A DNA stretch of 64,000 nt from Gammaproteobacteria bacterium (GCA_011321815.1 DROS01000023.1:27653-91652); one strand, 5' to 3'. Shown: positions 4,406-36,000, counted from the stretch's first letter. Made by a program: numbers and translations. Notes: generated from the sequence alone by a model not told the origin.

Positions 4406-5341
4406 TTACAAATCAATACCACTGGCCGCTCTTCCCTTTTCCAGCCAACGGGCACAATCCGGTGACAAAGTCTTTTTTACTGCGGTGTGGTACAGGTCCA
4501 GGTCTTCATCATTCAAAAACTCACGCCACAAACCGCTGCCACACTTATACATATAATCACTTGGCCCATCTCTTAACACAACGTTCATTTCGGGTAATAT
4601 CTTGTCCATATTTTTGTGGATTTCTTCAAAACGGGTCCGCTGCCTGATGCCAGGAAGGTGTTCTTCATCAATGGTGATATCAAGAAAATCGGCAATACGT
4701 TTTATTTCACCTTCCGTATCATTTAATAAATCCTCGAAGTGCACCAGCAGGATATTCGGCAACTTTCTGAAAGACCACCAGCTTTGTGCATGATCAAGGT
4801 GGGACCAGTAAGGATATCCCTGAGTTTCCCATTCGAACCATGATTGTGAAATCCATTTCCGCCAGAAGCTTTTATCATCGCCCACATCAGGAGGAAATGA
4901 TCTGCCTATCAAGTCATCATAATCCGCTGCCTTTTTTATGATCTCGGCGGAAAGCCCCCTGTGATGATGCAATAAAGACATGAATGCATCACGTGTATCA
5001 CGGCCAACAACGATATACTTGAGCTGCTCAAAAAATGTTAAGCCATTCAAAGGCAGATGGGATTTTATTGATCGACGATGAGTCTGGGCCTCCAATGTTG
5101 CCTGCATGGGTTCAAAGGGACTAAAGCGCAATTCATACCAGGGGGAAATCTCACCAATAGGCCCGGGAATATTTCCATCCTGAAAAATCAGATTGGCGAC
5201 AATTACCTGGGTCCAGGTTGTGCCAGCCCTTTGTGATGTTGTTACCACCACATCGCCTTGCCGCGGCGAGAACCGATCCCATCTCTCGGGATCAAACACA
5301 TGGTGAACGCTATAATCATAGGTTTTTACGGGTTTTTCCAT
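4406..5341 (-). CDS. PAPS-dependent sulfotransferase (Sulfotransfer_1 / aryl-type)
   Basis: 5'-PSB-like loop DVVVTTSQRAGTTW, catalytic KSHLP, 3'-PB motif VGRDTRDAFMS, and LLVHFEDL. Confidence 0.9.
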   Translation of the reverse strand: MEKPVKTYDYSVHHVFDPERWDRFSPRQGDVVVTTSQRAGTTWTQVIVANLIFQDGNIPGPIGEISPWYELRFSPFEPMQATLEAQTHRRSIKSHLPLNGLTFFEQLKYIVVGRDTRDAFMSLLHHHRGLSAEIIKKAADYDDLIGRSFPPDVGDDKSFWRKWISQSWFEWETQGYPYWSHLDHAQSWWSFRKLPNILLVHFEDLLNDTEGEIKRIADFLDITIDEEHLPGIRQRTRFEEIHKNMDKILPEMNVVLRDGPSDYMYKCGSGLWREFLNDEDLDLYHTAVKKTLSPDCARWLEKGRAASGIDL

Positions 5342-5407
5342 AATTGTATGCTCCTGAAGTCATTGGTGGTAAACAAGTGCCTATATAACCTGTCCTGGGG
5401 TCAGCTG

Positions 5408-6388
5408 TTATACATAAGCAGTGGAAAATGGTATCTGGTTGCGCTTCATTGCATCGAGCAGCTTGGCATAATTCGTTTGACTGTTATTAAATGGCGTTAT
5501 CACCGGGAAGACATTCAACGCAGACTGTTTCCCCCGCCAATGGCTCACCAGGTTGGCCATAGTACCGGTGGGACCAAGATCAATATAACAATAACGCTCA
5601 TTATTAACGATTGACGTAAGGGCCTCCATAAGACGTATGGGTTCACGTGCTGTTTGCCAGAAGTGATCTCCATCCAGATATTCAATGAGGCCAGTGGTTA
5701 CGGTGGAATACAGGGGGATTTGTAATTTGCGGAAAGCGATATTATTCAACACGCCAGCATAAGCACGGTGAGCCGGGTCGATATTTCCTGAATGGTAACC
5801 AAACGCAACAGGAAGGGGTTGAAAACAAATATTCTCGCGGCGTAAGTATTTTTCTGCTTCGCGTATACCGTTAATGCTGCCTGCTATGACAAAATGTTTC
5901 CCATGACTGTCAAAGGCAATATCTGTTGAATCATACAAAATATCATTATTATGATAGATACTGACATCATCAAGTACCGCCAGCATGGCGCCAGACTCAC
6001 AGTGAGCATCAAAACAATCTCCTGCACTTGCAACCAGATGCACTGCTGTTTCGAACGTCATTCCTCCTGCGACAACCACAGCTGTATATTCCCCCAGGCT
6101 CATACCACACACCACATCGGGCATAATGCCTTCTTGTTGCAGTGTTTCTGCCAAAGCATATTCTATGGTAAGCAATGCTATATTTGATAAGCGGCAGTCG
6201 CTGAAATTATCTGATTTATGCTTTCTCGGGTCATACACAACATCAAGGATTGAACATCCGGTGACATCATGAACTATCTTCGCTAAACGCAGCATATTAT
6301 GCTCGAATGCCGGATGACATACTCGCAGATCATTTCCCATATGGTAATATTGGGTTCCCTGCCCTGAAAACAAAAAAACATTTTTCAT
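5408..6388 (-). CDS. AT-fold acyl hydrolase (PedC/PksD-like proofreading enzyme)
   Basis: FLFSGQGTQYYHMG N-terminus typical of the AH clade; nucleophile elbow GMSLG; GYHS instead of the malonyl-AT AFHS. Confidence 0.72.
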   Translation of the reverse strand: MKNVFLFSGQGTQYYHMGNDLRVCHPAFEHNMLRLAKIVHDVTGCSILDVVYDPRKHKSDNFSDCRLSNIALLTIEYALAETLQQEGIMPDVVCGMSLGEYTAVVVAGGMTFETAVHLVASAGDCFDAHCESGAMLAVLDDVSIYHNNDILYDSTDIAFDSHGKHFVIAGSINGIREAEKYLRRENICFQPLPVAFGYHSGNIDPAHRAYAGVLNNIAFRKLQIPLYSTVTTGLIEYLDGDHFWQTAREPIRLMEALTSIVNNERYCYIDLGPTGTMANLVSHWRGKQSALNVFPVITPFNNSQTNYAKLLDAMKRNQIPFSTAYV

Positions 6389-6409: not shown

Positions 6410-9400
6410 TTAATCGGAAAACCACTGGCTCAGCAGTTTATTGATCTTTTTGTAGTGAAACAGGCTCAGAAAATGATGCCCATTTTTTATTTCATGATAT
6501 TCAGCGTCTGGTATTTTTTCGCTCAACTCCCGTGCAAATTTTGGCGGCATCAATACATCATCACCGCCACTGATAAGCAAAGTTCTGGCCCGGACATGCT
6601 CCGCTGATTCAACATGCCTGAAACGTGCAATCATCATAAAATAACTGTCAAGAATGCGTCGATTGGTAGTACACCAGACAAAACGTTCAATATGCCCTTC
6701 TTTTCTGAACGCCTTTATCTCGGGCATTTTGCGCAAAAAACCGGGCAGCTTCTGGAAATTTTCCTCAAATTCTTCAGCGCATTTAATGGAGAAATCCTCC
6801 GCTGAAATTGTGTATTCCTCAGATGACCAGGAGATGGTTGTGGTACTGATGAGCACAAGCTTGTCTACATATTGCGGATAATGTTTGCAAATGGTTTGCG
6901 CGACAAATCCCCCCAAGGACCAGCCGACCCAATGGTTTTTCTTATTCTGGATAATCTGACGTGTGACAAGCTCATCAATAACACCTGTCAGGATACCTGC
7001 CAGCTGTTCAAAATTATCAAGACCATCAACCCAGTCACTGCCGCTCAACCCCGGGTAATGAGGCACAATAATCCTGTATTTCCCACTCAGCCCCTGTAGT
7101 TGGCGAATCCAGATGACAGCACTGGAATTGAAGGGTGGCAGCAATATTACTGTCGGGCCTTCACCGCACACCAGACATTCAATGCGAACTCCATTCACTG
7201 ACACATTTTCAGTCATTATTTTATGGGTTACCCCGGAGCTGTTGTGGTAGGCATCCACATATCTTTTGATCGGCGCCAGTGTTTCTCCAAACTCCAGCGC
7301 ACCAATATCACCGACATCTTCTTTCTCAGGTGTTGGCGGATTATCATCAACCGATGATTCCGGGGCAGCCTGCCCATTGATAGTCGCCAGCGTATCAAGA
7401 TGTGAACTGAGCAGGGTACTGGTGTTGAATTCAAAAAGGGCAAACATATCCAGCGTCGGGTAAAACCGGCAAAGCTCAGTATGGATTTTGGTACCCATAA
7501 TAGAATCAATCCCCAAATCACCGAAAAGCGTTTTATCGGTGTAAACCTCGGGGAGCGCACCTAAAACCCGCTTCAGGGTGTCACGTACCCGTGTTAAAGT
7601 ATCGGTGCTTGCAATATCCAGGGCTGAAATATCTGGCGCCGCAATCGCCTGATCTGGGGCAGTATCTGTAACAGATACATCCACCATAGAATTTTTACCC
7701 TCTGTCACAGGGCTGACCAAGTCCGGCCGGAAAATATAACCCGGCAAATATGCACGTTTAGCCTTGGGGTCATGCTGGAAACCTTTTACCTTGCCAACTA
7801 CCCAGTTTTTCGCCACCGCCAGAAGCTCGGTAATACTTACCCCCATTCCCATCAATTCACTATGACCGGTTTCCTGCTCTTCGCCTGATATCATGGTGGA
7901 ATCAATACACCCTTCCAGATAAACTTTGAGCCGGGTTAACAATACATCCATGGAATCATCACAGATCAGCGCAAAGCGGTAACGACCGGCGGAACGTCCG
8001 CATTGTAATGTTGCGGCAATATTACGCACATTAAGTGCGGTGTTTAACAAGGCTTGTTCCGAACGAATGTATTGGTAGGTAACCCGTACCATATCAACAA
8101 GTTGTTCAGGCGTAGCGGCACTGAATGGAATAATATATTTAAAGCCCGATTCGTAATCAGGTTCTGTAACCTGAAATGATTCCGGCGCTTGTTCCAATAT
8201 CAGGTGTACATTGGTACCACCAGCCCCAAAGGAGCTGATGCCCGCCCGCCGCACAGGTTGTGATTCGCTCACCGGCCAGGGAGCCAGTTCTTTTTGTACT
8301 TTGAAAGGGATACGTGAAAAATCAATATTGGGATTCAGATTTTCATGATGCATCACATTGGGAAAATACTGTTGACTCTTTAATTGAAGTATTACCTTTG
8401 TGATCTGGGCAATGCCCGCCGCTGCTTCAAGATGACCAATATTCGACTTCAGCGAAGATATGGGACAACCTTCCGGCGGCACATTTTTGCCAAAAGCCTC
8501 GGACAGTGCCGACATTTCAATGGGGTCACCCAACGAAGTACCGGTACCATGACACTCCACAAAGGAAATACTTTGTGGCGATACCCCTGCGGCATCAAAT
8601 GCCTTGCGAATAGTGTCGCGTTGCGCATCGGGATTTGGCACTGTAAATCCCTGGGTACGGCCATCATTACCTGCTGCAACACCCTTGATGACAGCCAGCA
8701 CATTGTCACCATCCTCCTCAGCGCACTCAAGGGATTTCAACAAAACCATTCCCACCCCTTCACTGGGCACATAGCCGGTACCGCCCTCTGCAAAGGCACG
8801 ACAACGGCCATCTTTACTCAAGGCATTCTTATCGGAAAGAAATTCGTATTTACTGCGATGCAGGTTAAGATTTACGCCACCTGCCAGGGCCATTTCACAC
8901 AACCCAAAGCGGATAGCATTATAAGCATCGGCTATCGCATACAGTGAGGACGAACAGGCGCAATCAATTGCAATTGATGGCCCGGTAAGGTTGAAAAAAT
9001 ATGAAAGCCGGTTGGCATAGGAAAATATTTGTGAACTATAAGGCAACATATCGCCTTTACAGCGGTTGGATTCCGCAACAAGCTCGCTGTACTCATGAAA
9101 GGATGCACCAATATAAACACCAACATTACTGCCCTTGCCTCCCACCCACTGTACAGGATTATAACCAGCACTCTCGAAACATCGCCAGGTTTCCTGTAAT
9201 AACAATCGTTCTTCAGGATGAGTCATCAGCGCATCCCGAAAACTCATATTAAACTGTCCATAGTCGAAGTTCATCGGCTGGGAGAGAAACCCACCCCAAC
9301 GTAATTCATCCCCGGCAGCACGGTGTGTGTCGGGTACGGCTTCAATACAATCCCGTCCTTCTGCAAGTAATTCTGCAAACTGCAATACATTTTCGGCCTG

Positions 9401-11851
9401 GGGATAGCGGCCCGACAAACCAATAATGGCAACATCACTCACTGATGATCGTGCTGTCGCCTTGTGTGTTTCACTATGTAACCAGACCGAAGCCTTCGCA
9501 GCAGATCGTCGCTCCTTGCTGAGACTCAAACCGGGACTGCGCGCATCAATACGTACGGCGGCATCACGGATGGAACGCGCGGAATAAAATATTACGGGGT
9601 CCCTAAAACCGAGCAATGGTTCCAGGCGGGCAGTCAGCTCAGTAATAACCATAGAATTCAAGCCCAAATCGGTGATAGTCGCATCGGGGTCCAGGTTTTT
9701 CAGAGGGACTTCGCCAATCTCCGACAGATACCGACACAATATTTCAACAATCTCATCTTCCTTTGAGGTCTGTTTTTCCGCAACGGCCAGAATACGGGAG
9801 ACCTGTTCTATATCTGCTCCTGCCCTGGTGATTTCTTCAACCTTTTGCTGTTGAACCCCAATACGTGAAGGTATGTGTTCATCATATTGGTATGCGCCAG
9901 AGCTTACATGGCATTCTTCCATTGTAACCTTGTCCGCCGGGAGAGGTTGCTTTGCGTTGGATATACCGGCGCCACCTGTCTGCTTTAGCGAAGCCCCTGG
10001 CAAAAATAAATCAGGCAGCGGAAAATGCTGCGCGGCGAAGGGATAACCCGGTAAAGGTAACCGCCCTGGATTGGATTCATAGAATGTAGACCAGTCAATA
10101 TCTTCACCGTTGACCCAGGCTGCCGCCAGCCGATCCAGCCTCCCATTGGCAATCCAACGTTGGGTGAGCAGGTTTATTTCCTCTGTTTCCAGAAGGGCTG
10201 TCGCATTGTTGCAAATGCCCCGAAAAAAATTGTTCAACGTATTATCAGCCTCAAGACTGAACGCAGCCATCTGTTCCGCCAATTTCTTAAGATCACTTAC
10301 CACAAAAGCGACCCGGTGAGTCATCGGCACCCTCCCCAGCTGCAAGGTAAAGGCCAGACGCAACAAATCTTCTTCTTTTAATTTCGGCAGGTAATCTATT
10401 AATTCACTGACTCGCGCCTTGAGTTGGCCCTCTGTTTGCGCGGACAATACGATGCAATACGATTGATGGTTTAACCGTGCGGACTTTTCACTGGTAATAT
10501 TTTCGTTGGCTGTAAATTCTTCAACAATCACGTGCGCATTGACCCCACCTGCCCCAAAGGAGCTGACGCCGGCACATCGGGGCATATCGGCATAAGTTTC
10601 CCAGTCCGTGGTCTGGGTGATAAAACGAAACGGTGTTCCTTCAAGATCAATACCGGCATTTTGATTGTGCAGATGCAGGGTCGCAGGCAGGGTTTTGTGC
10701 TGCAATGCAAGAATCACCTTCAATAAACCGGCCATACCTGAAGCAGCCTCGGCATGCCCGATATTGCTTTTGACTGAACCAATACCGCAATGCGCCACCT
10801 CAGAAGCATCAAGGTTTTTCTGTTGATAAAGCGTAGAGAAAGCTTCCTTTAATGCGGTAATTTCCACAGAATCGTCCGAAGCACTGCTTGCACCATGGGC
10901 TTCGATATAACCAATTGCACGTGGGTCCACATCCGCCTTTTTATAAGTGTCCAGCAGAAGTTGTATTTGAGCTCTGGAATTCGGCACGGCAAGTGATGCA
11001 CTGTTACCGCTGTGGTTAACACGGCTGCCCCGGATTATCGCATGAATATGGTCACCGTTACGCTCTGCCTCAGCAAGCGGTTTAAGATACATGGCCCCAA
11101 ACCCTTCTGCGCGCACGTAACCATTGGCATCTTCATCAAATGCCTTACAACAACCATCAGGGGATAACACACCGGCACGACTGAATGATGTATGGCAAGT
11201 CGGCATCAGCAACGCATTTACACCACCAACAATAGCCGCATCACAATAACCGTTGTAAATGGCTTGCAACGCATGATCCACGGCCACCAGAGAACTGGAA
11301 CATGCCGTATCCACCGGTTCACTGGGGCCAAGCAGATCAAAAAAACTGGAAATACGGTTGGCCAGCATGGAAAAAGCATTGCCTGTTGAGGTGTACTCCA
11401 GCACATCCGTATCACTCATGCCCAGACGTTCAGCATAATCATGGTTTGTTACTCCGACAAACACACCTGTACGTGATCCGGAAATATCACAGGGACGAAT
11501 ACCGGCATTTTCCAGACAGTTCCACACCGTCTCCAGGCATTTACGATGCTGAGGGTCCATCAGCGCTGCTTCGTGTGATGAAATATGAAAAAAATCGGCA
11601 TCGAAGCTCTCAATACCGTCGACAAAACCACCCCAGCGTGTGGCTGTTTCATTTTGTATATCACTGGTATAGTTACGCCAATCCCAACGTTCAGTGGGAA
11701 TTTCAGTGATAACATTTCGCCCTTCCATGAGGTTCTGCCAAAAGACTTCAAGATCAGGCGCACCAGGAAATTGACCGCTTATTCCAACGATGGCAATAGC
11801 AGAATTTGTACATCCTGTTACTTTTTTTACGGTTTGTTTTGGCGCAGACAC
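6410..11851 (-). CDS. trans-AT PKS3: KS5(degenerate)-ACP-KS6-ACP-TE (alpha/beta hydrolase)
   Basis: KS5 has DTACSS / EAHGASSASDD / NIGHAE. ACP GLNSM. KS6 has DCACSS / HGTGT / NIGHLE. ACP GIDSI. Hydrolase has GWSLG and a C-terminal GHH. No AT, KR or DH. Confidence 0.92.
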   Translation of the reverse strand: MSAPKQTVKKVTGCTNSAIAIVGISGQFPGAPDLEVFWQNLMEGRNVITEIPTERWDWRNYTSDIQNETATRWGGFVDGIESFDADFFHISSHEAALMDPQHRKCLETVWNCLENAGIRPCDISGSRTGVFVGVTNHDYAERLGMSDTDVLEYTSTGNAFSMLANRISSFFDLLGPSEPVDTACSSSLVAVDHALQAIYNGYCDAAIVGGVNALLMPTCHTSFSRAGVLSPDGCCKAFDEDANGYVRAEGFGAMYLKPLAEAERNGDHIHAIIRGSRVNHSGNSASLAVPNSRAQIQLLLDTYKKADVDPRAIGYIEAHGASSASDDSVEITALKEAFSTLYQQKNLDASEVAHCGIGSVKSNIGHAEAASGMAGLLKVILALQHKTLPATLHLHNQNAGIDLEGTPFRFITQTTDWETYADMPRCAGVSSFGAGGVNAHVIVEEFTANENITSEKSARLNHQSYCIVLSAQTEGQLKARVSELIDYLPKLKEEDLLRLAFTLQLGRVPMTHRVAFVVSDLKKLAEQMAAFSLEADNTLNNFFRGICNNATALLETEEINLLTQRWIANGRLDRLAAAWVNGEDIDWSTFYESNPGRLPLPGYPFAAQHFPLPDLFLPGASLKQTGGAGISNAKQPLPADKVTMEECHVSSGAYQYDEHIPSRIGVQQQKVEEITRAGADIEQVSRILAVAEKQTSKEDEIVEILCRYLSEIGEVPLKNLDPDATITDLGLNSMVITELTARLEPLLGFRDPVIFYSARSIRDAAVRIDARSPGLSLSKERRSAAKASVWLHSETHKATARSSVSDVAIIGLSGRYPQAENVLQFAELLAEGRDCIEAVPDTHRAAGDELRWGGFLSQPMNFDYGQFNMSFRDALMTHPEERLLLQETWRCFESAGYNPVQWVGGKGSNVGVYIGASFHEYSELVAESNRCKGDMLPYSSQIFSYANRLSYFFNLTGPSIAIDCACSSSLYAIADAYNAIRFGLCEMALAGGVNLNLHRSKYEFLSDKNALSKDGRCRAFAEGGTGYVPSEGVGMVLLKSLECAEEDGDNVLAVIKGVAAGNDGRTQGFTVPNPDAQRDTIRKAFDAAGVSPQSISFVECHGTGTSLGDPIEMSALSEAFGKNVPPEGCPISSLKSNIGHLEAAAGIAQITKVILQLKSQQYFPNVMHHENLNPNIDFSRIPFKVQKELAPWPVSESQPVRRAGISSFGAGGTNVHLILEQAPESFQVTEPDYESGFKYIIPFSAATPEQLVDMVRVTYQYIRSEQALLNTALNVRNIAATLQCGRSAGRYRFALICDDSMDVLLTRLKVYLEGCIDSTMISGEEQETGHSELMGMGVSITELLAVAKNWVVGKVKGFQHDPKAKRAYLPGYIFRPDLVSPVTEGKNSMVDVSVTDTAPDQAIAAPDISALDIASTDTLTRVRDTLKRVLGALPEVYTDKTLFGDLGIDSIMGTKIHTELCRFYPTLDMFALFEFNTSTLLSSHLDTLATINGQAAPESSVDDNPPTPEKEDVGDIGALEFGETLAPIKRYVDAYHNSSGVTHKIMTENVSVNGVRIECLVCGEGPTVILLPPFNSSAVIWIRQLQGLSGKYRIIVPHYPGLSGSDWVDGLDNFEQLAGILTGVIDELVTRQIIQNKKNHWVGWSLGGFVAQTICKHYPQYVDKLVLISTTTISWSSEEYTISAEDFSIKCAEEFEENFQKLPGFLRKMPEIKAFRKEGHIERFVWCTTNRRILDSYFMMIARFRHVESAEHVRARTLLISGGDDVLMPPKFARELSEKIPDAEYHEIKNGHHFLSLFHYKKINKLLSQWFSD

Positions 11852-11910: not shown

Positions 11911-13050
11911 TCACTCATTGACCGGCTGCACATCGCCAAGATCAAAATATCCCTTATAACCCTGCATATAAATTGTTGCTTTTCGACCAAATAATGCAAT
12001 AGCCTGTGTTCGTGTTTCCAACACATCATCGTGATTTTTAACGGATACCCTGGTTCCCACAGGATAAGCGGCATTCCAGGCGGCAATCGTTTCCGCTGTA
12101 TTTTTAACCCCGGATTCGCTGTGACTGGTAACATCACCCTGAATGGCTTTCGCCTCTGGATCTTTTGCGGCAGATGCATCAGGCACAATTTCTGTATTAC
12201 TCTGGCCAAACTGTGTCTGTATTTTCTCAACAAGTGCAGTCAATACATGACCGGCACCTGTTTCCTCAAACTCCGTCACTCCCTGCTCAAGCATATAAGA
12301 AACACTGTCCAACCATTTAACTGGCCGGATAATCTGGGATGTCAGGTTTTCAATAATTTTTTCCTGTCGGTAAGGTTTTGCATGAACATTGGAAATAACA
12401 TCAATGGTTAAAGGGGAAAATTCAAAACGGCGAACATATTTCTTAAATTCAACCGCAGACGATTTCATATACCGGGAATGAAAAGCACCACTGGTATTTA
12501 GCGGAATGAACTTTATCCCATCTTCCGTAAAAATAGATTGCGCCCTGTTAATATCCTCTTCCAATCCCGAAATAACCGTTTGGTCATAGGAATTATGATT
12601 TGCAATATCTACCGTGGATAAATCATTGTTCTTCAGTAATTGGCTTATTTTCTTTTTGGTAGACCCCAAAATTGCAGCCATTGCACCTTTCGGCGCCAGG
12701 CTCATCAGCTCACCTCTCCTTTTAACCAGCTTCAATCCATCTTCAAAACTGATAGCGCCTGATGCCTGGAGTGCGTTATATTCACCGAGACTGTGGCCTG
12801 CCAAAAATTCCGGAAGATGTCCCGTTTTTTCGATTTTGTCCAGATAAGACATCGCACTGACCACATATAGTGCAGGTTGTGTGTACTGCGTAAAACCCAG
12901 TTGACGATCAGGGTCCTTAAGACACAGCTCCACAATTGAATACCCTAATATGTCATCGGCCGTTTGAACCATATCAGCATATTTTTCAAAAAGGTCTGCG
13001 CCCATTCCTTTATACTGAGATCCCTGACCAGGAAATATATAAGCTTTCAT
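11911..13050 (-). CDS. trans-acting malonyl-CoA:ACP acyltransferase with a C-terminal extension of about 100 aa
   Basis: FPGQGSQ, GHSLGEY, AFHS (malonyl-type). The AT is followed by a low-complexity linker and a small extra domain. Confidence 0.93.
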   Translation of the reverse strand: MKAYIFPGQGSQYKGMGADLFEKYADMVQTADDILGYSIVELCLKDPDRQLGFTQYTQPALYVVSAMSYLDKIEKTGHLPEFLAGHSLGEYNALQASGAISFEDGLKLVKRRGELMSLAPKGAMAAILGSTKKKISQLLKNNDLSTVDIANHNSYDQTVISGLEEDINRAQSIFTEDGIKFIPLNTSGAFHSRYMKSSAVEFKKYVRRFEFSPLTIDVISNVHAKPYRQEKIIENLTSQIIRPVKWLDSVSYMLEQGVTEFEETGAGHVLTALVEKIQTQFGQSNTEIVPDASAAKDPEAKAIQGDVTSHSESGVKNTAETIAAWNAAYPVGTRVSVKNHDDVLETRTQAIALFGRKATIYMQGYKGYFDLGDVQPVNE

Positions 13051-13904: not shown

Positions 13905-13951
13905 GACATATCTCCAATAGGTTATTCTAACTTATGATTCAGGACAAAATA

Positions 13952-15978: not shown

Positions 15979-16033
15979 ATAACTATCCTTTTACTCTGAT
16001 TATATTTTTAAAATATCACACGTATTTTTATAA

Positions 16034-17317: not shown

Positions 17318-17360
17318 CCCATTTCCTTGCAATTACGTGATAATTACGGCTATTTGTAAT

Positions 17361-17600
17361 TCAGGTGTTATCAACCAAAACATCGACCATTTCTTCAATA
17401 TTTTCCACACCCCCAAAACTGACCAGCGGTAACTTTATCCCCAACCGCTCCATTGATAACATTACTATCTCTGTACGATCAATTGAGTTGGCACCCAGCG
17501 ATTTAAGGTTTTGTTCAATCTTTACACCATCAGAATCGACATCAGGCAATACCTCTGAAATCACATCTTTTACAATCAGAAATACATTTTTCTTTTCCAA
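17361..17600 (-). CDS. Donor ACP of the beta-branching cassette (AcpK-like)
   Basis: LGANSIDR signature. TTG start at 17600 after a GGGAG RBS gives 79 aa. Confidence 0.9.
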   Translation of the reverse strand: MEKKNVFLIVKDVISEVLPDVDSDGVKIEQNLKSLGANSIDRTEIVMLSMERLGIKLPLVSFGGVENIEEMVDVLVDNT

Positions 17601-17620
17601 AATCAACTCTCCCTTATTAA

Positions 17621-27900: not shown

Positions 27901-30900
27901 GCATCCTTCAGGCGTTTGAGATAAACAGCCCCAACACCTTCTCCCGGAACATACCCATCTCCGCCACTGCCAAAACTTCGGCATTTTCCATCACTGGAGA
28001 GAAAATTATTATTACTTAGCCATAAATATTTACTCGACGAGAGTGATATGTTGACCCCCCCGACAATAGCACTGTGAGTTTCTTTCCTTTTTAAGCTTTC
28101 ACAAGCCAAATGAAGTGCTGTTAAAGAGGCAGAACAAGCCGTATCCACGGCCAAGCTTGGCCCACACCAGTCAAAGAAAAAAGATACTCTGTTTGCGATG
28201 CTATAAAGCAGCCCGTGTGGCCTTTGCAAATTACCTTTGAAGGTCTGTTCAACGCCCAATGAAATATAGGGTTGCCATAATGCGCCAACAAAAACGCCTA
28301 CAGACTTCCCTTGTAAATTCCTGTAGTTATATCCTGCATCTTCGATGCTCTCCCAGGCCACTTCAAGGAACATACGTTCCTGTGGATCAATTATTGATGC
28401 CTCTCTTGGTGAAATATTAAAAAACAGAGGATCAAATTTATCAATATCATCCAGAAATCCTCCCCACTCTTCAGGCAACAGATTTTTATCTGGAAACATC
28501 TTTTGTAATGCCTGGCGATCAAATCTTGATTCAGGTATTTTGCTGATACTGTCTCTGCCAGATTTTAAATTTTCCCAGAATTCCGCAAGATTTTTTGCCT
28601 CTGGGTATCTTCCGCTCATACCAACAATTGCAACCGGTTCCTTGTCCATAAAATCTTCCGGAACAGTCTCATCGTTGTCAGCGACATTCACAAAAATGTC
28701 ATTACCCGCGGGCGCGTCTTCATCATCTTGATGATATTCCCCCACACCATCAGTTACCGTTGTTTTTTCATCTGGAGAACCTGTACCAGAATTCTCCGCT
28801 CCTATTATTCTTTTCAGGGTATTCTGGTGATTCGCCAAAAAATATTCTGCCAACTCTTGAATACTCTTATACTCAAAAAATAATGTTTTTGACAAATTTC
28901 CAAACATTTGATCAAGACGCCGATTAAGATCAACGATCATTACAGAATTTATGCCATATGTTTCCAGTTGAACATCGGCTTCAATATCACAAGGCGGCAT
29001 TCCAATGGCCTCGGATAAAGTCTCTTTTAATATCTCACTTACCTGTTCAACGGTTATATCTGAAGGCTTAGCATCAGAATTATACTTGCCTGTTGGCTTT
29101 GCTTTTTGTGCTTCGGAATATTCATTTGTATGTGTCAGATTGCGCAATGACAATCCCTTGACTTCAACAACAATATTCCCATCTGTCGTAATAATACTTG
29201 CATTATATTTTTTGATTTCATTATTTTCTTTATTTAAGGACATTGTTTCTGTATGCACATAACATTCTTTTGGTATTTTCTTATGTACAATAATTTCATC
29301 AATTGCTATGGGTATAAACTTGCTGCTATTTATCCCGTCTGGCTTGTTGTTAAGCAATGCCGTTTGCAAAACGCCAGTAAGCATACTGGGATGGAGAACA
29401 TAATCCTCATAGGTATCTGCTATAAACTCGGGCAATTTCAAGTGCGATAGCGCCTCTCTTTCGCTCAAATTTACCTGAATCATCGGCTGAAAACTCGGGC
29501 CCACATGCAATCCTTCAGAGTGTATAAATTGATAAATTTCCTCTGTTTTCCGGATTACAGAACAACGGCTTTTAATTTCATCAAAATCAATTGTTCCCAA
29601 TGGGCTTTCATCAATATTTGAAATCAATTTTGTATGCACTTGACCAAGTGCATGAAGCACTCTTCCACTACCTTCTGCGTGGGTTATTTCATATTCATAG
29701 AAATCGTCTTTTTTCATCAGGCGTAAATCCGCCTGAATAGGATCGCCGGGTGTGGAAAGCTGTTTTGCCCAATAATTATTAGACAACTTTAATACATTCT
29801 TACCCTGTTCCAACAAATTTCCCGCCTGCAAAGCCATTTCTATATAGCAGGCTCCCGGAACGTTATACAGGCCTTCCACAACATGATCCTTCATAAAAAA
29901 CTCTTCATCAGATAATGTTTTTTGGAAAATCAATTTGGAACTGTCTGAAAAATCCACATCAATCAACGCCTGCCCTGGCGTGAACCATGATTCCTCTTGG
30001 CCCTCAGCAGTATTCCATATGGAATTATCAAGCAATCTTTCACTGTAATTATCCCAAAGATATCCCGATATTTTTGACACTGTATTAAGATCAAAAAATA
30101 AAGTTGGGTCCACATCCAGAGAAAAAACCTTATTGATTGACGCTGTGATCTTTGAAATCCCGACGGAATCAATTCCATAATCTGTCAGATTATCCGAATC
30201 ACCGATATCTTTTGAATCTTCACCTGAATTTGAAATTATTTCTCGTATTTTTTCTTTCAAGGATGCTTCATTCGTTAAATTGTCTTTATAAAAAGAATAA
30301 TCACGTGATAATACACTCAGGTGTTTTTCGATCTTATATTGATCCCCTTCAATCACAATTAACTGATCAGGAAGAGATGTCATTCCCTGGCGCAAAATAT
30401 TGTCAAAAATGAATAAACCCCTATCATTCTCCAACGCTTTCATTCCAAAAACGTCCCACAGGTGATCCTCTTCTTCCTTTATCACCCCAATTCCGCCGTT
30501 TTTCCATAATGGCCAATTAATCGCAATCGCTCTGCCAGATCTTTTTCCCTGTTCCGTCAATTGATTCCTGTATGACGAAAATTCATCTAAAAAACTATTT
30601 GCTGCCGCGTAATCACATTGCCCTTGATTGGGCATAATAGAGGCAATTGATGAAAATAAAATGAAAAAATCCAGTTGATCCTGTTTGGTTGCCTTATCCA
30701 AATTCACTGTTCCCATTATTTTAGGCGCAATGACATTGTCAAATGATTCCCTGGTTTTATTTATTATGTAAGCGTCTTCAATCAGGCCCGCACAATTAAG
30801 CACACCATTTAGGTGAATACCTTTCTCCCGAAATTCTTGACAGGCATTTATTAAAGAGGTGTTATTGTTTATATCCGCAGCGTAATACTGTCCATCTCCA

Positions 30901-33900
30901 CCCAATTTGCATAACTGCGCAAGCTTTCTTTCAATTTTTTTATTTTTCTTTGAGCGTCCAATCAGGATCAATTTTGCGCTATAGTTTTCGGCAAGGTATT
31001 GCGCAAACAGATAACCCAACCCTCCCGCACCACCGGCTATCAGATAAGTTCCATTCTGTTTGATTATGGATTCATTCGATGATGTTGAGAAATTTTTATG
31101 CGCCACAATCATGCGGACTTTTCTTTGCCCATTCGCATATTGAACTTCATTGAGGGGTGCATTCCGGTAAAAACCCAATTCCTGCATGACTGCATTGGCG
31201 ATTTTTTCTGGGTTATATTCACCTAACCCAACAGAAGTAATATTGATGTGGGGATTCTCAAATTTCAAGGTTCTTGAGAACCCTCCCACTGATGCATGCA
31301 GGCATGATGCCACAGTCTCACGCATGGAATATAAATATAAAATACGAACCCGCTTTGATAGTTTAGACAGTATCAGGGACTGTGTTATCGACAGTAATGA
31401 CTTTATTCCAAAATCAATATTATGTGATACCGATGGGTTATTTTTATAATTCCATTTGTATATTACTGATTCCGGTTCTACATCTTGGCTTTTAATATCA
31501 TCCCACAATAAACCAAGTGAATCTCTGTTTTCCCGATTAACTGTATAAGAGTTTTCGCCTGTCTTTTTAAATTTATCCCCCATTTTTACTAAAATAACCG
31601 TCTGATATTTTCCTGCCTTACGCAAAAAATTTGTCAGCGATGGATTAGTATCAAAAACAATTACAGTGGAAAGTCTTTCACAATGCATTCCTGATTTTCG
31701 TGGAATCCATTGTGGAACATAATGCAATATATTGTTTTCCATATTACCTTTCTCATCATTTACAGGAATATTGTTCTGGGAAGTATTATTTGATGATATT
31801 GATGGCCTATATATACGCTTAACAAAGTCAGAAAATTCAATAATAATATTTCCTTTCCGATCACATAAATACATATTAAAAACAGTCTGACCGTCTTTTG
31901 ATGACTTGGCATTTATGGTTGAATACACGTAACAGGAATCAGGAATTTTTCCGTGCAATGTAATACTCTTTAAATAAAAAGGGACCTTCTGCTTCTGCTT
32001 TTCTTCTGCGTTTAATACCTGTAATGCAACCACAGATTGAAAAACCCCATCCATCATGGATGGTTCAAGAGCATTGCCCGTGGTGTTAAGGGTAAAAATA
32101 TTGATGTCAGAAGACTGTTTTAACTCACACAATATTTCCGTTTTGTTATAGTTGCAGGATTTTATTGTCTGAAAACTCTCACCATAAAGTAACCCGTTAT
32201 TTTTAAATTGATGGTACAACTCCCTGGGAGCCTGGGTTGATTGACATCGATTTTTTATTTTTTCAATATCAAGTCTACGCAATGGCTTTTCCTGACAACC
32301 ACCAATAACAGTCCCCGTACAATATATTTTTCCGTCACTTTCCAATGACAGGTTGTAGCTATTATCCGAATCATTTTTGCTATATTTCACATTGACACGA
32401 ACGTCCTGCTCTACTTTAATCGCTTGCGCCCAATAAACGTCCCTTAATGACTGGACAGGTTCCTGACTTATTTTTTCGCCAATTTCCTGAAAAATATCCA
32501 GACATTTTACCCCCGGAACAATATTTACGCCTTTGACAATGTGATCACGTATAAAATAATCCGACTTTTGGAAAATTTTATATGCAGAGATTCCCTCTTT
32601 TGTTTTAGTTGACTTTTCATTCGTTTCTTCATCCGGTGGCGTTTTATTTTCATCTGGACGAGGAAACCAGCAATGCTTTTTCTGGAATGGGTATGCCGGC
32701 AATTGAATTCTGTTTCCTGACTGATATTGACTTAACCCTTTCCAGTCAACATCACTACCTTTTACCCAGCATTTGGCGAATTCATCAATATTGTCAGATT
32801 GCGGAACAAATTCAGCTATTTTATTACGTGTATCACCAGAAAAAATCCGGTCGCTATGCTTGTTTTCGGTGAATGCTTTCAAAAGCCCCAACAGCTGCCG
32901 ATAATCGTCGGCTAAAAATATAACTCGTTTTTCCAACGCTTCACGCCCACTTTGCAACGTAAAACATACATCTGAAAGAGAACAGTATTCCTCTCTTCCA
33001 TTCAGGTAGTTATAAACCGATGCAACGTATTCATGTAATTGCTCATGTGTTTTGGCCGAAAGTGGAACTACATATTTTTTATCTGTTAATAATGGATTAT
33101 CAGTTGATTTTTCTCTATCAACAAAAGGCGGTTCTTCCACTATTATGTGCGCATTAACCCCCCCCATTCCAAAAGAACTGATTCCCGCCCGCAGTGGATG
33201 TTCAACGCCATCCATAGTGACGTTATTCCATTGCTGATTTTTATCCACAATATAAAAAGGACTGTCATCCAATTTAATATATGGGTTCAATTTCTCAAAA
33301 TGCAGCAATGATGGTATTCGTTTATATTTAATGCTGAGCAAGACCTTGATAAGCCCTGCAACGCCCGCAGCACTTTCAAGATGGCCGACATTTGTTTTGG
33401 TTGAGGTCAAACCACAAAAAGGGGATTCATCTCCACTTAAATAAGGCTTGTATGCCTGCTTAAGCGCATTGATCTCAATGGGATCTCCAAGAGGTGTCCC
33501 TGTACCATGTGTTTCAATATACCCGATGGTTTTTGGATCGACATTTGCGGCGGAAATTGCAGCGCTGATGGTGGCGGCCTGTGCCGAAACTTTGGGGGCA
33601 GTTAAAAAATTTGACCGTCCTCCGTGCTTTACTGCTGAACCTTTGATTACCCCCAGAATATTGTCGTTATCTGACAATGCCTGATCCAAAGATTTGATAA
33701 AAACGACACCGACACCTTCGCCTCGGACATATCCATTAGCCTTGGCGTCAAATGATCTGCAATTACCGTCCTCTGACAGCATTCCGGATTTGCTGTGTGA
33801 GATATACATCGTTGGACTGAGGATAGCATTTACCCCGCCAACAACAGCGGCTTCACAAAATCCATTATTAATATCGTTAACGGCATTATCCAGCGCAACC

Positions 33901-34451
33901 AGAAAGCTGGAACATGCCGTATCAACAACTTCACTTTTACCTTGAAAATCAAATAAATATGATACGCGATTTGCAAGAATTGAATGTACTGTACCCGTTG
34001 ATAAAAAAGAGATAATCGGAATCTGATTTTCCCTCATCAGCTCCGCATAATCGTTTTTCGACACACCGGCATACACGCCAATATCTCTTCCTGACAGGCT
34101 TTTCGGGTTATATCCCGCATCCTCAATTGCATGCCATGCTGACTCCAGAAACAACCTGTGTTGCGGGTCCATATAGCTTGCTTCACGTGGTGATATATTA
34201 AAAAAAAGTGGGTCAAACATATCCACATTTTCAATAAACCCGCCATATTTTATGTTTGTTTTACTGTCTTCGCTGGTGGGGTCACCGTAATAGTCTTCCC
34301 AGTTCCACCGGTCCCCTGGTATTTCAGTCACACAATTTTTTCCGGCGATTAAATTATTCCAATATTCTTCATAATTCTTCGCACCGGGAAATCGGCAAGC
34401 CATCCCAATAATTGCAATATCACCAACTTCCCTGCTGTTTTTTGTTTTCAT
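24906..34451 (-). CDS. trans-AT PKS1: KS1-DH-KR-ACP-DH*-ACP-KS2-DH0-ACPbeta-ACPbeta
   Basis: KS1 and KS2 have intact C/H/H. DH HIVKGVNIVP...MDG. KR GGAGGLG / LIED / YAAAN. ACP GIDS. DH HVVEGLYNVP...LTG. ACP GINS. Two ACPs with GLDSIVGVEW (Trp flag of beta-branch acceptors). Confidence 0.94.
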   Translation of the reverse strand: MKTKNSREVGDIAIIGMACRFPGAKNYEEYWNNLIAGKNCVTEIPGDRWNWEDYYGDPTSEDSKTNIKYGGFIENVDMFDPLFFNISPREASYMDPQHRLFLESAWHAIEDAGYNPKSLSGRDIGVYAGVSKNDYAELMRENQIPIISFLSTGTVHSILANRVSYLFDFQGKSEVVDTACSSFLVALDNAVNDINNGFCEAAVVGGVNAILSPTMYISHSKSGMLSEDGNCRSFDAKANGYVRGEGVGVVFIKSLDQALSDNDNILGVIKGSAVKHGGRSNFLTAPKVSAQAATISAAISAANVDPKTIGYIETHGTGTPLGDPIEINALKQAYKPYLSGDESPFCGLTSTKTNVGHLESAAGVAGLIKVLLSIKYKRIPSLLHFEKLNPYIKLDDSPFYIVDKNQQWNNVTMDGVEHPLRAGISSFGMGGVNAHIIVEEPPFVDREKSTDNPLLTDKKYVVPLSAKTHEQLHEYVASVYNYLNGREEYCSLSDVCFTLQSGREALEKRVIFLADDYRQLLGLLKAFTENKHSDRIFSGDTRNKIAEFVPQSDNIDEFAKCWVKGSDVDWKGLSQYQSGNRIQLPAYPFQKKHCWFPRPDENKTPPDEETNEKSTKTKEGISAYKIFQKSDYFIRDHIVKGVNIVPGVKCLDIFQEIGEKISQEPVQSLRDVYWAQAIKVEQDVRVNVKYSKNDSDNSYNLSLESDGKIYCTGTVIGGCQEKPLRRLDIEKIKNRCQSTQAPRELYHQFKNNGLLYGESFQTIKSCNYNKTEILCELKQSSDINIFTLNTTGNALEPSMMDGVFQSVVALQVLNAEEKQKQKVPFYLKSITLHGKIPDSCYVYSTINAKSSKDGQTVFNMYLCDRKGNIIIEFSDFVKRIYRPSISSNNTSQNNIPVNDEKGNMENNILHYVPQWIPRKSGMHCERLSTVIVFDTNPSLTNFLRKAGKYQTVILVKMGDKFKKTGENSYTVNRENRDSLGLLWDDIKSQDVEPESVIYKWNYKNNPSVSHNIDFGIKSLLSITQSLILSKLSKRVRILYLYSMRETVASCLHASVGGFSRTLKFENPHINITSVGLGEYNPEKIANAVMQELGFYRNAPLNEVQYANGQRKVRMIVAHKNFSTSSNESIIKQNGTYLIAGGAGGLGYLFAQYLAENYSAKLILIGRSKKNKKIERKLAQLCKLGGDGQYYAADINNNTSLINACQEFREKGIHLNGVLNCAGLIEDAYIINKTRESFDNVIAPKIMGTVNLDKATKQDQLDFFILFSSIASIMPNQGQCDYAAANSFLDEFSSYRNQLTEQGKRSGRAIAINWPLWKNGGIGVIKEEEDHLWDVFGMKALENDRGLFIFDNILRQGMTSLPDQLIVIEGDQYKIEKHLSVLSRDYSFYKDNLTNEASLKEKIREIISNSGEDSKDIGDSDNLTDYGIDSVGISKITASINKVFSLDVDPTLFFDLNTVSKISGYLWDNYSERLLDNSIWNTAEGQEESWFTPGQALIDVDFSDSSKLIFQKTLSDEEFFMKDHVVEGLYNVPGACYIEMALQAGNLLEQGKNVLKLSNNYWAKQLSTPGDPIQADLRLMKKDDFYEYEITHAEGSGRVLHALGQVHTKLISNIDESPLGTIDFDEIKSRCSVIRKTEEIYQFIHSEGLHVGPSFQPMIQVNLSEREALSHLKLPEFIADTYEDYVLHPSMLTGVLQTALLNNKPDGINSSKFIPIAIDEIIVHKKIPKECYVHTETMSLNKENNEIKKYNASIITTDGNIVVEVKGLSLRNLTHTNEYSEAQKAKPTGKYNSDAKPSDITVEQVSEILKETLSEAIGMPPCDIEADVQLETYGINSVMIVDLNRRLDQMFGNLSKTLFFEYKSIQELAEYFLANHQNTLKRIIGAENSGTGSPDEKTTVTDGVGEYHQDDEDAPAGNDIFVNVADNDETVPEDFMDKEPVAIVGMSGRYPEAKNLAEFWENLKSGRDSISKIPESRFDRQALQKMFPDKNLLPEEWGGFLDDIDKFDPLFFNISPREASIIDPQERMFLEVAWESIEDAGYNYRNLQGKSVGVFVGALWQPYISLGVEQTFKGNLQRPHGLLYSIANRVSFFFDWCGPSLAVDTACSASLTALHLACESLKRKETHSAIVGGVNISLSSSKYLWLSNNNFLSSDGKCRSFGSGGDGYVPGEGVGAVYLKRLKDAIRDGDHIYGLIKGTSINHGGKTNGYTVPNPVKQTELILSTLDKSGISPEVISYVEAHGTGTSLGDPIEITGLQKAFSNYTDKKEFCAIGSVKSNIGHLEAAAGIAGLTKLLLQLKHKTLVPSINADELNPNIDFSSTPFIVQKELKSWGPFTDKDNNGQEKEMPLRAMLSSFGAGGSNAHAIIEEYRNVNSLATQNIGGNNKNQEIIVSRLSSGKEIIIPLSAKTVDRLKLHADNLLNYIEINETNILNAGDSYRGNAIQLEDIAFTLQTGREEMDERVVFLVKDVSDLKDKLRNYISIEGVASSKIISGNIGSGRKTFNVFSLDNELNNVFDNWIYSGDGLKIATLWINGIEVNWDQLYHTRKPEKVSLPTYPFRKDRYWIAETDSEFMRNTATLQQVTQIHPLLHENTSDLYAQRYSSTFTGKEAYFEKSRLNEEMVLSSMAYLEMVHAAISQASGIKEQQQKTVFLSDVEWLECFTVKDQRKLHITLTLDEDLNDNIENVKFEIYSAGEKQGENSVFHARGCVYVDDREKKEVLDITFLLKKMSRHLDPNACDEILGELEYIKNKGKIKDIYIGGSSALIKYESYNLAHNSNYTFTLNPDSLETVLTAAIVVSKKTDKSTTDNTLLSDLSSIQSFIPMMLGTMNIYQKCSGNMFAWIKNVRHSVLPVDGIDRNMVEMDVDFIDSKGYVCARAIGLGFESMDVSKRADVSRPINHFFESPTRIPEKPTAITLLNLQSVHQVKSQNFDLNVVDAQHEENYTISLMDSDTDEAVITDTVDTSASLERLISQKYNFVKVLSESLARALYMELNDVDIDRQFTEMGLDSIVGVEWINELNQKLSLDVNATIVYDYPTIRDFARYLENKMASQDVQPASDYNTPPKSRHRRNKRLSKKSPESDNVIIPKVDDLQKLLAISLAKALYMDESDINIELPFIDMGLDSIVGVEWIKVINDQFNTSILATAVYDHTNLREFSRYLEKVIKNKVSETSSGVEMVD
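25051..25427 (+). repeat. 32-nt identical core in the two tandem beta-branch ACPs
   Basis: tttatccattcaacaccgacaatagaatccag at 25051-25082 and 25396-25427. Confidence 0.9.
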
Positions 34452-34566
34452 AGTATTTTTTTCAATCTGTATTTATCATTTTCAAGTTGATTCAACGCAG
34501 CAAATGCTGAAACCGAATACCATTATTTTCTATCTGTTTTTTGATGATATTTTTTTGCAAATTCAT

Positions 34567-36000
34567 TTATCCGGAAATACTGACCGGCGACCGTGTTTCT
34601 TTCCTGTAGTCCGTTAGACTGCCGACAACATGAACTTCGCCTCCCTTTATAAAACCCAGGTCACCCGTTCGCAAATACGGTCCATCCTCAGAGCCCTCAG
34701 GATAAACGTTAAATATTCTTTCTGTTTCAGCTGGCTGGTTCCAATAACCCAGAGCATTACATTTACTACTGACCAGAATCTCTCCTAATTCGAGCTCACT
34801 ACACCTTGTCAAAGTCCCTGGAATAATAACCACTACCCGTGTATCGCTTACTGGCAGCCCACAACTTGTGATTTTGGCTTCTGCATGACTATCCTGGTTA
34901 TTCTCTGCCATTCCCCCGGATAAGCGCTGCATCGACTTGCGTGGAATAATTGTGGGATTTTTAGGATAATTGCTTTCTGATGCCACATAAGCTGATTCCG
35001 CCAACCCATAAAATGAAGTCAAGGCCATTTCCTTTAAACCACAATAACTGAATTTTTTAAAAAAACTGTCCATCGTTTCTTTATTCACAGATTCTCCACT
35101 GCTATATGCAGTTTTCCACCCGGACAGATTCAGGCTATTTTCTTTGGGGTCAGACACCTGGTCGACGCACATGCGGTATGCAAAATCAGGGGCGCCACTG
35201 AATGTAATTTCATATCTGGTTATTGCATTCAGCCAATTTCCAGGGTTTTTATAAAAATCAAACTGCGAACATATATATCCCCTGTACCCGCAATAAAGCG
35301 GCTGAAGAATACCTAGCGCCAAACCTAAATAATGATAATTTGGTAACCAGTGCACCGATCTGCTCGATGCAGTTAATTTATAGTCATTTTTGATGGATTC
35401 ATGTACGGAATTAATATTGTCATGACTTATCATGACAAATTTCGGGCTTCCTTCTCTGGCGCTGGCTGATGTTCGCTGCAAATAAGCGGTACTATTACTG
35501 TCGACTACCGGCATGCTCCAATGATTGATTAAATCATCATTTACGTCCTCGACCGCCAATAAAATTTTCTGGGATAATTTACTGGATTTGAAAAAACACT
35601 GTACCACCTCATTTAATATTGAGGTGCTTGTAAGCACAACATTGCTGCCGGTTTCTTCAATGATATTTTCAACGTGACATATCCGGGCATCATCATGTTG
35701 AGTGGCCCGCGGTGGAGCTGTTACCACCGGCACTGCGCCGCTATACATTACTCCCAGAAAAGCATAAATAAATTCCAGACCTTGAGGGAAAAGCAGTAGG
35801 ACTCTATCCGACGGGTCAATTATTTGTTGCAGCCTTCCCGCAACTGCTGTTGCCCGTGTATACAGCTGTTGATTGGATAATTGATTTACCACATCGCATT
35901 GATCATCCAGATAGGCAAAGGCAAGCTTGTCCGGCGCCTGTTTAACTCTTGCGGCCAATGCTTCCATTAAGTTAGCTGGTTGTTGCATTATGTCTCTCAC
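34567..36000 (-). CDS. Fatty acyl-AMP ligase (FAAL)-like protein, degenerate and C-terminally truncated
   Basis: FAAL-like N-terminus (DRVLLLFPQGLEFIYAFLG, YGLAE, YLRTGDLGF). P-loop altered to YLQRTSASAREGSPKF. Stops about 20 aa after the hinge (GSLTD), at 477 aa. Confidence 0.82.
   Translation of the reverse strand: MRDIMQQPANLMEALAARVKQAPDKLAFAYLDDQCDVVNQLSNQQLYTRATAVAGRLQQIIDPSDRVLLLFPQGLEFIYAFLGVMYSGAVPVVTAPPRATQHDDARICHVENIIEETGSNVVLTSTSILNEVVQCFFKSSKLSQKILLAVEDVNDDLINHWSMPVVDSNSTAYLQRTSASAREGSPKFVMISHDNINSVHESIKNDYKLTASSRSVHWLPNYHYLGLALGILQPLYCGYRGYICSQFDFYKNPGNWLNAITRYEITFSGAPDFAYRMCVDQVSDPKENSLNLSGWKTAYSSGESVNKETMDSFFKKFSYCGLKEMALTSFYGLAESAYVASESNYPKNPTIIPRKSMQRLSGGMAENNQDSHAEAKITSCGLPVSDTRVVVIIPGTLTRCSELELGEILVSSKCNALGYWNQPAETERIFNVYPEGSEDGPYLRTGDLGFIKGGEVHVVGSLTDYRKETRSPVSISG

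Follow-up and report, generated by a model that had tools for sequence, protein, structure and literature searches.

Genes and domain states of the cluster

A trans-acyltransferase (trans-AT) polyketide synthase (PKS) gene cluster is described here from a Gammaproteobacteria bacterium (GCA_011321815.1, DROS01000023.1:27653-91652), in a stretch of 64,000 nucleotides that was analysed at its full length and that we call the window. The cluster is operon-like, extends over about 33 kb (2860-36626) and lies on the minus strand (Table 1). Its core, running from 36000 down to 4406, consists of 11 large co-oriented open reading frames (ORFs) and an 81-aa ORF in the gap between PKS2 and KS-S. Because the intergenic gaps measure only -13 to 115 nt, the genes from the truncated-looking fatty acyl-AMP ligase (FAAL-N) to the sulfotransferase (ST) can be taken as one operon, and the reading frames, up to 3181 codons long, are intact. 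Architectures were read from Pfam scans of whole proteins and of inter-domain pieces. These scans placed the genes and nearly all domains where an initial annotation, made from the sequence alone, had put them on the minus strand, and its domain string turned out to be correct. They also found no methyltransferase, enoylreductase, cis-AT or nonribosomal peptide synthetase (condensation or adenylation) domain in the cluster, in line with its claim that methylating, enoyl-reducing and peptide-forming parts are missing. Judged from its genes, the locus is very probably a dedicated and functional trans-AT PKS and ST cluster. Its GC content is 0.416 versus 0.50 in the flanks, which hold ordinary chromosomal genes. 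At least three studies of hydrothermal vents have yielded metagenomes that contain DNA of the window; E. coli genomes and a plasmid collection gave no match.

Table 1. Features of the cluster in the window and of a second PKS locus in a related genome
Feature	Position	Strand	Basis or remark
u322, secreted 322-aa protein	2860-3828	-	signal peptide
Repeat copy 1, promoter-like, upstream of u322	4058-4131	-	direct repeat
ST, free-standing PAPS-type sulfotransferase	4406-5341	-	PF00685, 128 bits
AH, AT-like acyl hydrolase, proofreading type	5408-6388	-	PksD best PDB match
PKS3: KS5(HGASS)-ACP-KS6-ACP-alpha/beta-hydrolase	6410-11851	-	domain scans
AT1, malonyl-specific trans-AT	11911-13050	-	FabD TIGR00128 and PDB matches
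ECH2, PksI-type decarboxylase	13155-13904	-	NCBIfam PRK07110
ECH1, PksH-type dehydratase	13952-14731	-	NCBIfam PRK07112
HCS, HMG-CoA-synthase homologue	14719-15978	-	HMG_CoA_synt_N and _C
KS-S, free-standing decarboxylating KS, Cys to Ser	16034-17332	-	alignment, NCBIfam PRK07103
Donor ACP, free-standing, 81 aa	17361-17606	-	PP-binding
PKS2: DH*(His only)-KS3-DH0-KR0-ACP-KS4	17621-24832	-	domain scans
PKS1: KS1-DH-KR-ACP-DH*(His only)-ACP-KS2-DH0-ACPb-ACPb	24906-34451	-	domain scans
FAAL-N, 477 aa, N-terminal domain without C-terminal subdomain	34567-36000	-	PF00501 only
Repeat copy 2, promoter-like, upstream of the FAAL to ST operon	36553-36626	-	direct repeat
Second PKS locus of genome C (L005): 319-aa protein with N-terminal ACP, 1781-aa FAAL-N-KS-KR-ACP, ~1240-aa protein without Pfam match	13602-20936 (of L005)		2.7 kb downstream of the genome C ST

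The three large synthases show the trans-AT pattern, with no match to Acyl_transf_1 and with a RhiE-like_linker or CurL-like_PKS_C region after every ketosynthase (KS). AT1, whose best PDB matches are 3G87, PksE, PksC and DisD, scores 332 bits against the FabD profile and carries a GHSLG motif. The second AT-like protein, AH (AT2), matches PksD with 202 bits, all its other PDB matches reaching at most 92 bits, and has GMSLG as its nucleophile motif. The beta-branching cassette is complete, comprising the donor acyl carrier protein (ACP), KS-S, HCS, ECH1 and ECH2. In an alignment KS-S reads GGASAS where the modular KSs have DTACSS, and the NCBIfam equivalog cut-offs for PksF/H/I-type families are exceeded by KS-S (473 bits, cut-off 445), ECH1 (408 bits, cut-off 250) and ECH2 (378 bits, cut-off 215). 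A counterpart of the donor ACP is annotated in the relatives with 80-89 aa. The tryptophan flag DSxxxxxW occurs, as GLDSIVGVEW, only in ACP3 and ACP4, the tandem that follows KS2, and in none of the five other ACPs.

All six modular KSs keep the Cys-His-His set. PKS1 starts with KS1 at residue 11, and KS4 leads directly to KS5 with no ACP between them. DH1, the first dehydratase (DH), is intact in HxxxGxxxxP and DxxxQ, and KR1, the first ketoreductase (KR), in GGAGGLG, Tyr/Asn and "IED"; the catalytic motifs of both are conserved in the relatives. By these motifs, module 1 is predicted to be the only module with a working DH and KR. Two further domains, DH2 in PKS1 (HVVEGLYNVP) and DH4 at the N-terminus of PKS2 (HKVFGQLIFP), keep the His while their Asp is replaced by Thr and Ser, respectively. 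Both His-only states lie within motifs that hardly vary among the three full clusters, and the two domains are thus presumably functional. They are placed as ACP-DH*-ACP and ACPb-ACPb/DH*-KS3 with no KS0 ahead of either, so that they appear to resemble enoyl-isomerase DHs without being members of that class, whose KS0 partner is missing here. DH3 (an N half) and DH5 (a fragment) have lost the His, and the DH3 region is poorly conserved and drifting. KR2 is a fragment with CDCEKMG where GGxGxLG is expected, and the DH0-KR0 loop of PKS2 shows 14-47% identity among relatives, a different piece having been deleted in each lineage. From these states, five productive elongations are expected, by KS1, KS2, KS3, KS4 with the first ACP of PKS3, and KS6. 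The domain states bear out the earlier picture: the trans-AT PKS is compact, would carry out about five elongations, has a single working KR and a single beta-branch, and is accompanied by a dedicated ST.

Relatives, selection and the promoter-like repeat

Relatives were collected by searching for the ST in named genomes, which gave three contigs of metagenome-assembled genomes (MAGs) of uncultured Gammaproteobacteria, and then by protein searches and exact look-ups. The cluster is not unique; it recurs in at least five uncultured lineages and in differing genomic contexts. The window and L002 carry the long form with KS5. Cluster B (L003/L008/L010) is a short form from which KS5 has been deleted. 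Cluster C (L004-L007 and L009, about 30 kb), with a FAAL 51% and an ST 77% identical, has no KS5, AH or ECH1 and carries u322 before the FAAL. Cluster D (L011) lacks KS5 and AH and has a MauG-like gene inserted ahead of PKS3. Only the cluster end is seen in L012, a distant locus of high GC; its KS5-ACP-KS6 follows the order of PKS3 with 46% identity, and a single fused gene combines AH and AT. The inserted gene of cluster D (L011 4893-6254, between the trans-AT and PKS3) encodes a 453-aa CCP_MauG di-haem peroxidase, which may provide an extra oxidative tailoring step without a counterpart in the window.

Compared with the relatives, all 12 genes have ratios of nonsynonymous to synonymous substitution rates (dN/dS) of 0.03-0.18 at a dS of 0.9-3, which is saturated. 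Individual values are 0.035 for HCS, 0.036 for the release domain of PKS3, 0.04 for the ST and 0.18 for FAAL-N. Because such values are found in every gene, the cluster must be seen as maintained by selection and not as decaying, and decay, which had been named as a refutation of the initial annotation, is rejected. Relaxed constraint is local, affecting the DH0-KR0 loop of PKS2, the DH3 region and KS5. The window, B and C share no related flanks, and genome C has a cluster-like GC content throughout. Since the GC contrast in the window is accompanied by unrelated flanks, the cluster was likely acquired horizontally.

The fate of KS5 can be followed across the family. Its dN/dS is 0.13 versus 0.04 for KS6, and the HGTGT motif, intact in L012, is replaced by HGASS in the window and by HGAGC in L002. 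In L003 a clean in-frame deletion has removed it and left roughly 14 residues from the start of the long form in place, and it is absent from clusters C and D as well. Because three lineages manage without it, KS5 is redundant, and we read it as a decaying KS that is predicted to be dispensable. An origin of KS5 by recent duplication was rejected, no pair of KSs exceeding 43% identity. Together with the losses of AH from clusters C and D and of ECH1 from cluster C, these deletion variants show dispensable trans-AT parts and should be of use in PKS engineering.

The cluster extends beyond the genes of the initial annotation, as u322 and a duplicated promoter-like element belong to it. In all four genomes where the respective end is visible u322 adjoins the cluster, after the ST in the clade of the window and before the FAAL in cluster C. 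With 76-89% identity to its relatives and a dN/dS of 0.06-0.08 it matches the core enzymes in conservation. It has no Pfam or NCBIfam match, and its family is small, with 198 representatives among 1.84 billion proteins. An AlphaFold2 (AF2) model reaches a pLDDT of 91, and its C-terminal half is a generic Greek-key beta-sandwich, weakly similar to Cu,Zn-superoxide dismutase (SOD; TM ~0.45) and without metal ligands. No functional call for u322 as a recognisable enzyme could be made, there being no family match and only the weak SOD-like match of the fold. Next to u322, window positions 1042-2876, which include a NERD-UvrD_C ORF (1504-2703, 399 aa), have no counterpart in L002, whose flank is otherwise syntenic and where the match jumps from 2876 to 1042; this looks like an insertion or deletion of about 1.8 kb.

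The element is a direct repeat of 74 nt in two copies that are 88% identical, and each copy carries, on the minus strand, a sigma-70-like TGGACA-16-TATTTT ahead of a minus-strand unit. Within it, a core of about 65 nt has hardly changed across five copies from three genomes, between which synonymous sites are saturated. Both copies are conserved in genome B (84-88%) and one in L002; none was found in cluster C, where u322 directly precedes the FAAL. An Rfam search with the repeat returned nothing at the gathering threshold. From its position and conservation the repeat is probably a duplicated promoter or operator through which u322 and the PKS operon would be co-regulated. An AraC/GyrI-like (Cass2) regulator of 289 aa is encoded upstream of the FAAL in B (L008 7842-8711) and in C (L006/L007 5393-6262), with no counterpart beside the cluster of the window. 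It is a candidate regulator that might bind the conserved repeat.

Chain initiation, release and sulfation

FAAL-N matches FAAL families of NCBIfam over profile positions 5-462 of 578 and is 33-38% identical to cyanobacterial FAALs. The initial annotation had called it truncated. Its homologues form 14 clusters at 90% identity (P0001-P0014), with lengths of 449-509 aa and identities of 51-96%, and all of them end at the hinge. Since the short family is conserved and under purifying selection, the short FAAL is not the result of damage, and the notion of a recent truncation has to be given up. The 115-nt gap between FAAL and PKS1 cannot encode a C-terminal subdomain. A 57-aa ORF overlapping the FAAL start was rejected as a FAAL partner, not being conserved in the relatives. 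Exact look-ups of the window FAAL and of the KS-S of L003 found neither on record, probably because of differing start codons.

A second PKS near cluster C (Table 1) contains a FAAL-N that is 41% identical, likewise ends at the hinge and is fused to a KS through a linker of about 30 residues. This fusion is a single case among the long homologues and does not represent a widespread family. Its existence, in the manner of a Rosetta stone, supports a functional partnership of FAAL-N and KS1. A review of FAALs from 2025 describes an architecture of N-terminal and C-terminal domains as common to all FAALs, with truncated forms and trans-AT systems unmentioned (PMC11837247). A FAAL family that naturally lacks the C-terminal subdomain is of enzymological interest, such a subdomain being treated as universal (PMC11837247). 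Because the conserved short family always lies immediately upstream of a PKS that starts with a KS, and one fusion exists, FAAL-N could be regarded as one half, catalytic or adaptor, of a trans-AT initiation device not described so far, in which it would cooperate directly with the first KS. Neither a C-terminal subdomain nor a loading ACP would be needed for it to pass the acyl group, whether as acyl-AMP or taken from a different donor, on to KS1. The line would then be unusual at its start and also at its end, where the ST is widely coupled to a non-canonical hydrolase. We regard this extended reading as doubtful.

At the other end of the line, the thioesterase (TE) of the initial annotation stands as a C-terminal release domain of PKS3, although not as a canonical one: it matches Abhydrolase_1/6 and Hydrolase_4 and not the thioesterase family PF00975. 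Its nearest families, at weak similarity, are enol-lactonases, BioH and C-C hydrolases. The Ser-Asp-His set, given by GWSLGG, Asp and GHH, is conserved. An AF2 model built from four sequences has a pLDDT of 52 and is unusable for fold comparison. In the region KS6-ACP-hydrolase only a linker lies between KS6 and ACP, so that the last module has no KR. In L012 the ST (59% identity), the ACP with the same alpha/beta-hydrolase (52%) and the fused AH-AT gene adjoin one another, with overlapping genes. There, a 509-aa protein without a Pfam match (L012 8032-9561) starts 4 nt before the ST stop and is followed by an FG-GAP/UnbV_ASPIC protein; the 509-aa protein and the ST are probably translationally coupled.

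The nearest solved structures of the ST are retinol dehydratase and cytosolic SULT1/2 enzymes. It contains RAGTTW as the 5'-phosphosulfate-binding motif (5'-PSB, residue 38), KSHLP with the catalytic His (93) and GRDTRD..S as the 3'-phosphate-binding motif (3'-PB, 113), all of them conserved in four orthologues. With these motifs and its family assignment (PF00685), the ST is predicted to be an active cytosolic-type enzyme that depends on 3'-phosphoadenosine-5'-phosphosulfate (PAPS). A free-standing SULT-type ST tied to a non-canonical release domain is of interest to enzymology.

Proposed course, rival readings and related systems

We propose, with a probability of roughly 0.45 for the course as a whole, that the locus is a functional, horizontally mobile trans-AT PKS operon of uncultured vent Gammaproteobacteria. 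From the domain states, which are observed, we infer the following chemistry. An acyl starter would be presented to KS1 with the assistance of FAAL-N. Module 1 (KS1-DH-KR-ACP) would then give an enoyl intermediate, whose double bond is probably shifted by DH2 with its own ACP. In module 2 (KS2-ACPb-ACPb) a beta-methyl branch would be introduced by the donor ACP, KS-S, HCS, ECH1 and ECH2, and DH4 probably shifts the resulting double bond. KS3, KS4 (with the first ACP of PKS3) and KS6 would add three unreduced units, and, because no lineage has a working reductive domain in modules 3-5, a 3,5,7-triketo thioester is expected at the hydrolase. Release would lead to a 4-hydroxy-2-pyrone or to a ring of the resorcinol or phloroglucinol type, and the free-standing ST would O-sulfate an enol or phenol hydroxyl, while AH may proofread stalled ACPs. 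A SULT-type ST fits this course because enolic or phenolic hydroxyls would be the only ones left on the product. A sulfated pyrone or phenol is thus put forward tentatively, with rather less than even confidence, and it falls within the class of small, methyl-branched, largely unreduced, sulfated polyketides that the initial annotation had predicted and with which the analysis of domain states agrees. A precedent is AdpST, a free-standing PAPS-dependent ST in a PKS cluster that sulfates the resorcinol head of the adipostatins (PMC12135136).

A number of points weigh against this proposal. FAAL-N ends about 15 residues past the hinge, so that the entire C-terminal subdomain and the catalytic Lys are missing, and its P-loop reads RTSA..KKGxPKF instead of YTSGSTGxPKG. 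No loading ACP is fused or adjacent to FAAL-N, nor is there a conserved small ORF upstream. The elongation roles of the KSs are assumed from active-site motifs. The count of reductive domains covers the genes of the cluster, and a trans-acting KR may be encoded elsewhere in the genome. The release domain can be assigned only generically as an alpha/beta-hydrolase, and a SULT-type sequence does not tell phenol from alcohol acceptors. Neither the cluster nor the flanking genes of the window include genes for PAPS supply or export. No RNA runs are listed with the cluster that would give evidence of transcription. The cluster is known from its genes, and its product, transcript and enzyme activities are all predicted.

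Some of these features would also be expected of a decaying relic that makes nothing: the FAAL without its C-terminal part and with an odd P-loop, the missing loading ACP, the KS4/KS5 junction without an ACP, the degenerate DH3, DH5 and KR2, and the lack of listed RNA runs. Such a relic is scarcely credible in view of the low dN/dS at saturated dS, the intact long frames and the conservation of the same peculiarities in relatives 51-89% identical, while the degenerate parts are limited to two reductive loops. Another view of the locus takes the 74-nt repeats as attachment sites of an excisable 32.5-kb island, since they bracket the genes from FAAL to ST, the GC content differs from that of the flanks and these flanks differ between cluster-bearing genomes. 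The window, however, has no integrase among its ORFs and no tRNA. Both copies of the repeat are conserved in a genome that is saturated at synonymous sites against the window, every copy stands ahead of a minus-strand unit with the same sigma-70-like promoter, and cluster C has u322 directly before the FAAL with no repeat found. Attachment sites are therefore highly improbable, and the promoter or operator described above remains our preferred explanation of the repeats.

The product itself can be read in other ways. The main rival to the pyrone or phenol is a release like that of CurM and Ols, in which the ST and the alpha/beta-hydrolase would act together. Sulfonation would make a leaving group of a beta-oxygen, and hydrolysis with decarboxylative elimination would then yield a terminal alkene, or an alkyne from an enol sulfate, and an unsulfated product. 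The ST is tied to this Abhydrolase-type domain across a wide family, with overlapping ST, TE and AH-AT genes in L012. The ST and TE of the Ols-like protein P0481 match the same Pfam families as those found here (PF00685/PF13469 and PF00561/PF12697/PF12146), and its TE shares 29% identity with the release domain over 126 aa around the nucleophile (E 5e-6). The best PDB match of the ST, retinol dehydratase, is a SULT that sulfonates and then eliminates. The last module, however, has no KR that would supply the beta-hydroxyl, and the ST is free-standing and not placed between ACP and TE. By BLASTP it shows no similarity to the Ols-type ST domain of P0481 (E 0.13 over 24 aa), no CurM ST is among its PDB matches at E <= 0.01, and the elimination of an enol sulfate to an alkyne is not known to have a biological precedent. 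All in all this release seems quite improbable to us. The product might instead be linear, for instance a beta-keto acid, a methyl ketone formed from it by decarboxylation, or a chain that trans-acting enzymes have reduced; the ST would then sulfate a hydroxyl that derives from the starter or from an enzyme encoded outside the cluster. The starter could be a hydroxy acid, FAAL-type enzymes usually bringing in fatty acids (PMC11837247), and SULT2-type relatives sulfate aliphatic alcohols; the MauG-like haem enzyme of cluster D, moreover, indicates that accessory oxidative tailoring varies between versions of the cluster. Against this, the versions of the cluster have no hydroxylase or additional KR in common, and the conservation of a run of three minimal KS-ACP modules points to a role for the poly-keto end. 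We consider a linear product unlikely and keep the sulfated pyrone or phenol as the tentative assignment.

Among known systems, the cluster is most readily compared with bacillaene (pks/bae) of Bacillus subtilis. Both have AT-less KS-linker modules, a malonyl AT of the PksC/PksE type, an AH closest to PksD, a cassette of the AcpK/PksF/PksG/PksH/PksI type, tandem Trp-flagged acceptor ACPs and His-only DHs next to the beta-branch. In contrast to bacillaene, the cluster described here has no nonribosomal peptide synthetase, only five or six KSs, three terminal non-reducing modules, an alpha/beta-hydrolase in place of the PF00975 TE, a free-standing ST, FAAL-N instead of an AL-ACP loading module and His-only DHs without a preceding KS0. 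DH variants that shift double bonds, usually with a KS0 partner, are known from bacillaene and corallopyronin. The trans-AT PKSs of corallopyronin and myxopyronin combine HCS-dependent beta-branching, a double-bond shift by a His-only DH* and a pyrone end group. Their pyrone arises through a dedicated KS (CorB/MxnB), which links two chains, and they include nonribosomal peptide synthetase and methyltransferase parts and no ST. CurM (curacin A) and Ols likewise bring a PAPS-type ST and release by an alpha/beta-hydrolase together in one PKS pathway, and Ols is primed by a FAAL-type starter enzyme. Unlike these cis-AT systems with ACP-ST-TE off-loading, the present trans-AT cluster has a free-standing ST, a last module without KR and a FAAL without C-terminal subdomain and ACP. 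The adp cluster of Streptomyces davaonensis also pairs a free-standing PAPS-dependent ST with a PKS, and there the phenolic head formed from an unreduced poly-keto chain is sulfated (PMC12135136). It differs in having a type III PKS and a dedicated PAPS cassette, where our cluster is modular and trans-AT with no PAPS cassette; the likeness is to the chemistry that we propose.

Word searches of papers, NCBIfam and the PDB (for trans-AT with ST and FAAL, for sulfated trans-AT products and for vent trans-AT clusters) found no described pathway with this architecture, which upholds the earlier claim that it matches none. Uncharacterised trans-AT clusters in MAGs are numerous, and the cluster is an orphan example of known machinery with some unusual parts. 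These parts are the FAAL-N without C-terminal subdomain and its fusion to a KS, the pairing of the ST with a non-canonical hydrolase, the variants lacking KS5, AH or ECH1, and the secreted, probably co-regulated u322. If expressed, the cluster would yield a new small sulfated polyketide from an uncultured hydrothermal-vent lineage, for which paper searches turned up no natural products. Its modest length of 33 kb puts synthesis and heterologous expression within reach.

Further genes in the surroundings deserve mention. About 10 kb upstream of cluster C, a 510-aa protein combining MACPF and hemopexin domains, a eukaryote-like pore-forming combination, is encoded at the edge of L006/L007 (positions 1-14, the gene running off the locus). 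In the window, an ArsM-type arsenite methyltransferase gene (37878-38762) stands just before two adjacent, partly overlapping ORFs of 287 and 289 aa (39088-40702), both of which match the NCBIfam spondin-domain family NF038123.

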